DNA of 64,000 nucleotides from Escherichia coli (GTDB taxonomy: Bacteria > Pseudomonadota > Gammaproteobacteria > Enterobacterales > Enterobacteriaceae): NCBI RefSeq assembly GCF_024502345.1, contig NZ_JALDNN010000001.1; one strand, written 5' to 3'. This document shows positions 50,894-53,368 of the stretch, one piece after another. How positions within the stretch are numbered: position 1 is the stretch's first letter; every line of letters begins with the position of its first letter. The position numbers and the translations under genes were made by a program. The notes beneath the pieces are model-generated. The model ran no database searches, was not told where the DNA came from, and worked only from the letters and a program-made list of their open reading frames with translations.

Positions 50894-52822
50894 ATGCCTG
50901 TTATAACTCTTCCTGATGGCAGCCAACGCCATTACGACCACGCTGTAAGCCCCATGGATGTTGCGCTGGACATTGGTCCAGGTCTGGCGAAAGCCTGTAT
51001 CGCAGGGCGCGTTAATGGCGAACTGGTTGATGCTTGCGATCTGATTGAAAACGACGCACAACTGTCGATCATTACCGCCAAAGACGAAGAAGGTCTGGAG
51101 ATCATTCGTCACTCCTGTGCGCACCTGTTAGGGCATGCGATTAAACAACTTTGGCCGCATACCAAAATGGCAATCGGCCCGGTTATTGACAACGGTTTTT
51201 ATTACGACGTTGATCTTGACCGCACGTTAACCCAGGAAGATGTCGAAGCACTCGAGAAGCGGATGCATGAGCTTGCTGAGAAAAACTACGACGTCATTAA
51301 GAAGAAAGTCAGCTGGCACGAAGCGCGTGAAACTTTCGCCAACCGTGGGGAGAGCTACAAAGTCTCCATTCTTGACGAAAACATCGCCCATGATGACAAG
51401 CCAGGTCTGTACTTCCATGAAGAATATGTCGATATGTGCCGCGGTCCGCACGTACCGAACATGCGTTTCTGCCATCATTTCAAACTAATGAAAACGGCAG
51501 GGGCTTACTGGCGTGGCGACAGCAACAACAAAATGTTGCAACGTATTTACGGTACGGCGTGGGCAGACAAAAAAGCACTTAACGCTTACCTGCAGCGCCT
51601 GGAAGAAGCCGCGAAACGCGACCACCGTAAAATCGGTAAACAGCTCGACCTGTACCATATGCAGGAAGAAGCGCCGGGTATGGTATTCTGGCACAACGAC
51701 GGCTGGACCATCTTCCGTGAACTGGAAGTGTTTGTTCGTTCTAAACTGAAAGAGTACCAGTATCAGGAAGTTAAAGGTCCGTTCATGATGGACCGTGTCC
51801 TGTGGGAAAAAACCGGTCACTGGGACAACTACAAAGATGCAATGTTCACCACGTCTTCTGAGAACCGTGAATACTGCATTAAGCCGATGAACTGCCCGGG
51901 TCACGTACAAATTTTCAACCAGGGGCTGAAGTCTTATCGCGATCTGCCGCTGCGTATGGCCGAGTTTGGTAGCTGCCACCGTAACGAGCCGTCAGGTTCG
52001 CTGCATGGCCTGATGCGCGTGCGTGGTTTTACCCAGGATGACGCGCATATCTTCTGTACTGAAGAACAAATTCGCGATGAAGTTAACGGATGTATCCGTT
52101 TAGTCTATGATATGTACAGCACTTTTGGCTTCGAGAAGATCGTCGTCAAACTCTCCACTCGTCCTGAAAAACGTATTGGCAGCGACGAAATGTGGGATCG
52201 TGCTGAGGCGGACCTGGCGGTTGCGCTGGAAGAAAACAACATCCCGTTTGAATATCAACTGGGTGAAGGCGCTTTCTACGGTCCGAAAATTGAATTTACC
52301 CTGTATGACTGCCTCGATCGTGCATGGCAGTGCGGTACAGTACAGCTGGACTTCTCCTTGCCGTCTCGTCTGAGCGCTTCTTATGTAGGCGAAGACAATG
52401 AACGTAAAGTACCGGTAATGATTCACCGCGCAATTCTGGGGTCGATGGAACGTTTCATCGGTATCCTGACCGAAGAGTTCGCTGGTTTCTTCCCGACCTG
52501 GCTTGCGCCGGTTCAGGTTGTTATCATGAATATTACCGATTCACAGTCTGAATACGTTAACGAATTGACGCAAAAACTATCAAATGCGGGCATTCGTGTT
52601 AAAGCAGACTTGAGAAATGAGAAGATTGGCTTTAAAATCCGCGAGCACACTTTGCGTCGCGTCCCGTATATGCTGGTCTGTGGTGATAAAGAGGTGGAAT
52701 CAGGCAAAGTTGCCGTTCGCACCCGCCGTGGTAAAGACCTGGGAAGCATGGACGTAAATGAAGTGATCGAGAAGCTGCAACAAGAGATTCGCAGCCGCAG
52801 TCTTAAACAATTGGAGGAATAA
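50894..52822 (+). CDS. thrS: threonine--tRNA ligase
   Basis: 642-aa [46 protein letters not shown]... Confidence 0.97.
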
Positions 52823-52825
52823 GGT

Positions 52826-53368
52826 ATTAAAGGCGGAAAACGAGTTCAAACGGCGCGCCCTAACCGTATCAATGGCGAAATTCGCGCCCAGGAAGTTCGC
52901 TTAACAGGTCTGGAAGGCGAGCAGCTTGGTATTTTGAGTCTGAGAGAAGCTCTGGAGAAAGCAGAAGAAGCCGGAGTAGACTTAGTCGAGATCAGCCCTA
53001 ACGCCGAGCCGCCGGTTTGTCGTATAATGGATTACGGCAAATTCCTCTATGAAAAGAGCAAGTCTTCTAAGGAACAGAAGAAAAAGCAAAAAGTTATCCA
53101 GGTTAAGGAAATTAAATTCCGTCCTGGTACAGATGAAGGCGACTATCAGGTAAAACTCCGCAGCCTGATTCGCTTTCTCGAAGAGGGTGATAAAGCCAAA
53201 ATCACGCTGCGTTTCCGCGGTCGTGAGATGGCGCACCAGCAAATCGGTATGGAAGTGCTTAATCGCGTGAAAGACGATTTGCAAGAACTGGCAGTGGTCG
53301 AATCCTTCCCAACGAAGATCGAAGGCCGCCAGATGATCATGGTGCTCGCTCCTAAGAAGAAACAGTAA
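52826..53368 (+). CDS. infC: translation initiation factor IF-3, initiating at AUU
   Basis: Frame opens at ATT 52826-52828, 3 nt after the thrS stop, giving the 180-aa (M)[42 protein letters not shown]... The track shows only the 144-aa part from an internal ATG. Confidence 0.92.

Follow-up and report, generated by a model that had tools for sequence, protein, structure and literature searches.

The AUU start codon of infC at the thrS-infC junction of an Escherichia coli contig

[quoted passage not shown] In the window, i.e. the whole 64,000-nucleotide stretch of E. coli DNA analysed here, the ORF list holds for infC only the frame 52934..53368, which encodes 144 residues and is 36 codons short. 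A preliminary description had recognized this frame as an internal fragment and had placed the start of full-length IF3 at an ATT three nucleotides past the thrS stop codon. Both statements are borne out below, and the infC of the window is almost certainly part of the canonical E. coli thrS-infC junction, with IF3 synthesized from the AUU at 52826 under an autoregulatory loop. The AUU start of infC and its self-regulation are already known, having been established in the 1980s-1990s. The locus is therefore of use chiefly as a quality check that confirms the canonical E. coli order thrS-infC-rpmI-rplT-pheMST, and as a sanity check of annotation, since an ORF track that admits only ATG, GTG and TTG as starts cuts IF3 by 36 residues.

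The thrS-infC junction and its IF3 product

Read directly, nucleotides 52813-52831 of the plus strand are GGAGG AA TAA GGT ATT AAA, and the junction is composed of the following features.

50894..52822, plus strand: thrS, threonine--tRNA ligase, 642 codons and a TAA stop (ORF list, TIGR00418, RefSeq orthologous stretch)
52813-52817, plus strand: Shine-Dalgarno sequence GGAGG of infC, within the final thrS codons and 8 nt from the ATT
52820-52822, plus strand: TAA stop of thrS, lying in the infC frame two codons 5' of the ATT
52823-52825, plus strand: spacer GGT of 3 nt (direct read)
52826-52828, plus strand: infC initiation codon ATT (RefSeq CDS start; conservation of the start column; published genetics, PMC5499595, PMC7797042)
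52826..53368, plus strand: infC, translation initiation factor IF3, 180 codons and a TAA stop (53366-53368)

Because the infC frame opens just two codons 5' of the ATT, at the in-frame thrS TAA, and contains no ATG, GTG or TTG between that upstream stop and codon 37, the start of infC is the ATT; its position and the absence of a canonical start upstream of codon 37 are demonstrated by the reading of the frame itself. An AUN codon thus stands at the N-terminus of the protein with a Shine-Dalgarno sequence 5' of it, RefSeq begins its coding sequence at the same base, and no canonical in-frame start precedes the N-domain, which begins at residue 15. From the stop to codon 15 the sole ATN- or NTG-like codons are the ATT (codon 1) and an ACG (codon 9). 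A run of 36 codons that lacks a canonical start has by our own estimate a probability of ~0.18 for random codons and is not rare when taken alone; the ATT start is nevertheless not attributed to chance, since the IF3 families span those 36 codons and the ATT is kept across the best 80 species loci compared below. No evidence against the ATT start site was found in the data examined.

The identity of the product as IF3 is likewise demonstrated. The 180-residue protein matches TIGR00168, the NCBIfam IF-3 equivalog, with 284.7 bits against a curated cut-off of 60 bits (residues 10-179, profile positions 2-170 of 170), and carries a complete Pfam IF3_N domain (PF05198, residues 15-84, profile 1-70 of 70) followed by IF3_C (PF00707, residues 91-177, profile 1-86 of 86), so that the two-domain architecture of IF3, an N-domain and a C-domain joined by a Lys-rich linker, is present. 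It aligns from residue 1 to 180 with PDB 8jsg_A (E = 1.3e-111), and the same 180-residue E. coli IF3 occurs in 11 PDB entries. The only differences from the E. coli IF3 of the PDB are position 1, rendered Ile by the translation tool and Met in the protein, and Val37Leu. The E. coli sequence in solved structures starts MKGGKRVQ. The structure-sequence alignment with Thermus thermophilus IF3 begins at query residue 15-16. The preliminary description had proposed an alignment of IF3 N-termini as the check, with loss of the residues upstream of the internal frame in orthologs as the outcome that would count against it; the orthologs keep N-terminal residues (from 15-16 in T. thermophilus, from 15 in Pfam), so that this outcome did not occur. 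Its full-length frame, 180 codons from the ATT at 52826 to 53368, is that of RefSeq to the base: in E. coli IAI39, infC occupies 3227-3769 of the locus, equivalent to 52826-53368 of the window, and has the same ATT start. The 36 upstream residues of that description also stand, but not its wording that they precede the first ATG, for the internal frame opens at TTG (52934) and the first in-frame ATG is codon 68 (53027).

The thrS frame matches TIGR00418 with 824.8 bits in the profile search, and the ORF list together with the RefSeq orthologous stretch gives the gene order thrS-infC-rpmI-rplT-pheM-pheS-pheT, the synteny of enterobacteria. This order and the IF3 identity agree with the preliminary view that the locus is canonical, and nucleotides 52600-53460 match 5425 of 5426 complete E. 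coli genomes. Downstream of infC lie the following features.

53386..53413, plus strand: GC-rich hairpin of 12 pairs, 7 of them G-C, followed by TTTGTT, in the gap between infC and rpmI (terminator-like scan)
53465..53662, plus strand: rpmI (L35), which follows infC in the operon (RefSeq coordinates from locus L001; the ORF end agrees)
53715..54071, plus strand: rplT (L20), the final gene of the infC-rpmI-rplT operon (ORF list, RefSeq)

The hairpin has the look of a terminator or attenuator and matches no Rfam family; in E. coli the translational operator of L20 includes this infC-rpmI intergenic region. On the other side of thrS a divergent ORF (48736-50370, minus strand, 544 residues) shares its start with espL1, which in E. 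coli IAI39 is annotated as a type III effector of 632 residues. In the window this espL1-like ORF seems truncated at the 3' end and is possibly a pseudogene like arpB in K-12.

The region from which initiation takes place is open and not structured. The 81 nucleotides around the start (52786-52866) were less stable in RNA folding than 198 of 200 dinucleotide shuffles (z = +2.06), and a structural switch gating the AUU is accordingly unsupported, as this segment folds worse than shuffled sequence. At gathering thresholds, Rfam searches of 50000-58000 and of the complete window yielded no known RNA element for the thrS-infC junction, and a scan of the complete window for tRNAs was negative. Elsewhere in the window Rfam matches were obtained for Phe_leader (54188-54312), for the enterobacterial sRNA STnc540 directly 3' of pheT (58152-58310, plus strand, 67.4 bits) and for ES036/CssrF (30289-30331, minus strand, 38.0 bits, barely exceeding the gathering score of 37.6).

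Conservation of the start and initiation at AUU

Comparison across species was made by one scan of species-representative genomes, from which the best 80 loci, at 74-99% protein identity to the window, were used. These are mostly Enterobacterales, together with Orbales, Idiomarinaceae and an Enterovibrio, all of them Gammaproteobacteria; since they are phylogenetically related, the counts among them do not represent independent events. The codon aligned with the start is ATT in 79 of the 80 and ATC in the remaining one, is never canonical, and is preceded two codons upstream by an in-frame stop in 74. The first canonical in-frame codon 3' of the start lies anywhere from codon 9 to codon 69, and because its position wanders no internal start is conserved; in two of the loci (L040 and L078) an ATG or GTG also stands in frame 5' of the start. 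As controls, nine other Ile columns of infC, each conserved in at least 90% of sequences, were taken from the same 80 genes, and each mixes ATT, ATC and ATA, with two or more codons in use and 14 to 51 minority codons per column. Since these control columns vary, the near invariance of the third base at the start goes beyond what a sense Ile codon shows.

Conservation of the AUN codon, the Shine-Dalgarno sequence and their spacing is demonstrated by the flank alignment of the same 80 loci, where positions -17 to +12 are conserved at ~90% or more nearly throughout, and where each position of the GGAGG is conserved at 90% or more in the 64 loci with the 3-nt register. Residues 2-36 average 84% identity to the window, compared with 91% for the rest of IF3. 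The gap between the thrS end and the start is 3 nt (after TAA or TAG) in 64 of the 80 and 2-4 nt in 69, with five loci at 2 or 4 nt, and most relatives have GGT or AGT as the spacer. Nine loci, from Pseudidiomarina and Gilliamella/Orbaceae, have a thrS that ends 19-27 nt 5' of the infC ATT, with the Shine-Dalgarno sequence and the ATT unchanged; loci with this longer gap include L067, L074, L077, L079 and L081 of Pseudidiomarina and L072, L075 and L080 of Gilliamella. Over the ~30 nt before position 1501, the Pseudidiomarina and Gilliamella loci keep GGAGGAAT-GA-nnn-ATT, with an in-frame TGA two codons 5' of the start, while L078, from Orbaceae, has no in-frame stop at that place. An in-frame stop that is kept before the AUU despite the earlier end of thrS could have a function of its own, a weaker reading and one for which the independent lineages are few.

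Within the species the start is nearly uniform. The 61 nucleotides around it are identical in 5419 of the 5425 complete genomes of E. coli that matched, one complete genome has the spacer variant AGT, and neither ATG nor ATC occurs at the infC start, in its 41-nt context, in any of 5426 complete E. coli genomes. As read from these alignments, the conservation of the ATT shows constraint and by itself is silent on IF3 as the agent.

The preferred account of how this start is used is that ribosomes would bind the GGAGG in the last thrS codons and begin IF3 at the AUU (52826), which initiator tRNA would decode as Met. IF3 destabilises 30S initiation complexes on non-canonical start codons, and because of this its level would set the initiation at its own AUU, with less initiation when IF3 is high and relief when it is low, in a negative feedback loop.

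One may ask whether initiation at the AUU is instead achieved mainly by termination at the thrS stop and reinitiation, with only a minor part for Shine-Dalgarno-driven binding of the 30S subunit. [quoted passage not shown] Moreover, besides the thrS promoter, two promoters (P0 and P0') inside thrS drive infC, which implies many infC transcripts that lack the thrS start (PMC6511841). A mainly reinitiation-driven start is thus improbable; coupling to thrS may add to independent initiation and is unlikely to replace it. A promoter-like sequence is present inside thrS in the window.

52610..52638, plus strand: candidate promoter TTGAGA-17-TAAAAT, 10/12 in the consensus scan, inside thrS and ~190 nt 5' of the infC start

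With its sigma-70-like sequence it may correspond to one of P0/P0'. It is held to be only a candidate because the scan counts do not exceed those of shuffled sequence, with 7 promoter-like sites against 4.8 expected, and similarly 6 terminator-like sites against 4.9 expected, neither of them above chance.

Initiation from the AUU at 52826 is also to be weighed against a start at another near-cognate codon further into the gene. Candidates are present in frame at codon 9 (ACG, 52850), codon 15 (ATC, 52868) and codon 19 (ATT, 52880), but no suitably spaced Shine-Dalgarno sequence precedes them, whereas GGAGG sits 8 nt before 52826. Codons 2-6 (KGGKR), which such a start would leave out, are conserved as coding in the best 80 loci, codons 15 and 19 alternate among ATT, ATC and ATA unlike codon 1, and the E. 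coli IF3 of solved structures includes the residues from MKGGKRVQ onward; the chance of such a start is regarded as vanishingly small. A ThrRS-IF3 readthrough fusion, conceivable here as the two genes are in frame, was rejected on the ground that at least 14 of the 80 species, those with gaps of 2, 4, 19 or 22 nt, have thrS and infC in different frames (two further loci were not scorable).

The 144-residue frame and codon 37

It is scarcely credible that the real product is the 144-residue protein initiated at the first canonical codon, with the 36 upstream codons forming an untranslated leader. This protein is what a standard ATG/GTG/TTG caller finds as the only ORF, and its sequence is found on more than 1000 public contigs as a truncated "IF-3" from codon 37, as well as in the deposited sequence of chain Z of PDB 5me0/5me1. 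However, it would lose the first 22 of the 70 IF3_N positions, and among the best 80 loci the upstream frame is open, with residues 2-36 conserved at 84%, while codon 37 is GTC, GTT, GTA, ATC or ATT, i.e. non-canonical, in 61 of the 80. Published ribosome profiling and proteomics also favour the long form, ATT-initiated IF3, over the truncated GTG ORF in E. coli and Salmonella, where peptides from residues 1-36 are reported (PMC5714196). On the profile evidence the 144-residue ORF is a truncation artefact, since IF3_N starts already at residue 15, and the truncated "IF-3" is a widespread artefact of gene callers restricted to ATG, GTG and TTG. The ORF list errs in the other direction for two neighbours, over-extending rpmI (GTG at 53450, 70 residues, against the annotated ATG at 53465, 65 residues) and pheS (54509, 331 residues, against the annotated 327), and these cases are further reminders that a start in the ORF track cannot be taken as the start of a gene.

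The false start of the short frame is itself a variant, whose private nature the preliminary description had missed.

52934..52936, plus strand: codon 37, TTG (Leu), the false start of the 144-residue ORF; the usual codon is GTG (Val37), altered here by G->T

In the remaining E. coli genomes that were examined codon 37 is GTG, so that the TTG changes a potential internal start and does not create one, and the T of the window at 52934 was found in none of 5426 complete E. coli genomes. Among the best 80 related species loci residue 37 is Val in 76, Ile in 2 and Met in 2, and is never Leu; the exact Leu37 protein of 180 residues is on record once (WP_256632867.1, on one 4.74-Mb contig). Val37Leu may reflect either a sequencing error or rare natural variation. 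The chance that, if real, it slightly changes IF3 function and hence the set-point of the AUU feedback loop is put at a few in a hundred. Apart from Val37Leu nothing at the locus lies outside the textbook picture or departs from the reference. That a SNP should be private is not remarkable here, as over the 24 kb of 40001-64000 no complete E. coli genome is more than 99.2% identical to the window, while infC and the 3' end of thrS are 99.9% identical; by these comparisons the window comes from a lineage without close representatives among the 5426 complete RefSeq genomes.

Autoregulation and relation to known infC systems

IF3 accepts AUG, GUG and UUG and rejects other start triplets in the formation of the 30S initiation complex, while infC itself begins with AUU or AUC and is under the control of its own product (PMC5499595). 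When IF3 falls, infC translation rises, which makes a homeostatic loop (PMC5472188), and the AUU is the target of this autoregulation (PMC5499595, PMC7797042, PMC5472188, PMC1865079). As cited in PMC5499595, PMC7797042, PMC1865079 and PMC5472188, Butler et al. (1987) found that changing AUU to AUG abolishes autocontrol, and the same papers cite Sacerdot et al. (1996) as a key study of IF3 autoregulation through AUU; for the AUU start and translational autoregulation of E. coli K-12 infC, PMC5499595 and PMC5472188 cite Sacerdot et al. (1982) alongside these two studies. Published genetics thus establishes repression dependent on IF3 and its loss on conversion of AUU to AUG. That the AUU is the basis of IF3 autoregulation, as the preliminary description had likewise stated, agrees with the comparative data, and autoregulation in this Val37Leu strain is assumed.

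All features that define the infC start at the level of sequence are present in the window. Both its gene and the regulatory start are those of E. coli K-12, which makes it a member of that system and not an analogue: the 61-nt start context, the Shine-Dalgarno sequence, the stop, the spacer and the order thrS-infC-rpmI-rplT-pheMST are shared, and in IF3 itself only Val37Leu (52934 G->T) differs. Bacillus subtilis infC also has an AUU start (PMC1865079); unlike that of the window it does not abut thrS and has its own leader with L20-dependent attenuation. In other bacteria both the third base of the start codon and its context differ from the window, infC starting at AUC in Streptomyces (PMC5472188), at AUA in Flavobacterium johnsoniae (PMC7797042) and probably at AUA in Deinococcus/Thermus (PMC2830850). 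The AUN starts of infC in these other organisms have led gene callers into the same mis-annotation of a downstream canonical codon (PMC1865079, PMC5472188, PMC7797042, PMC2830850). In E. coli one other gene, pcnB, begins with AUU and resembles infC in that the poor start limits expression (PMC5499595); its product is not the factor that discriminates among start codons, and pcnB therefore has no autogenous loop, unlike infC.
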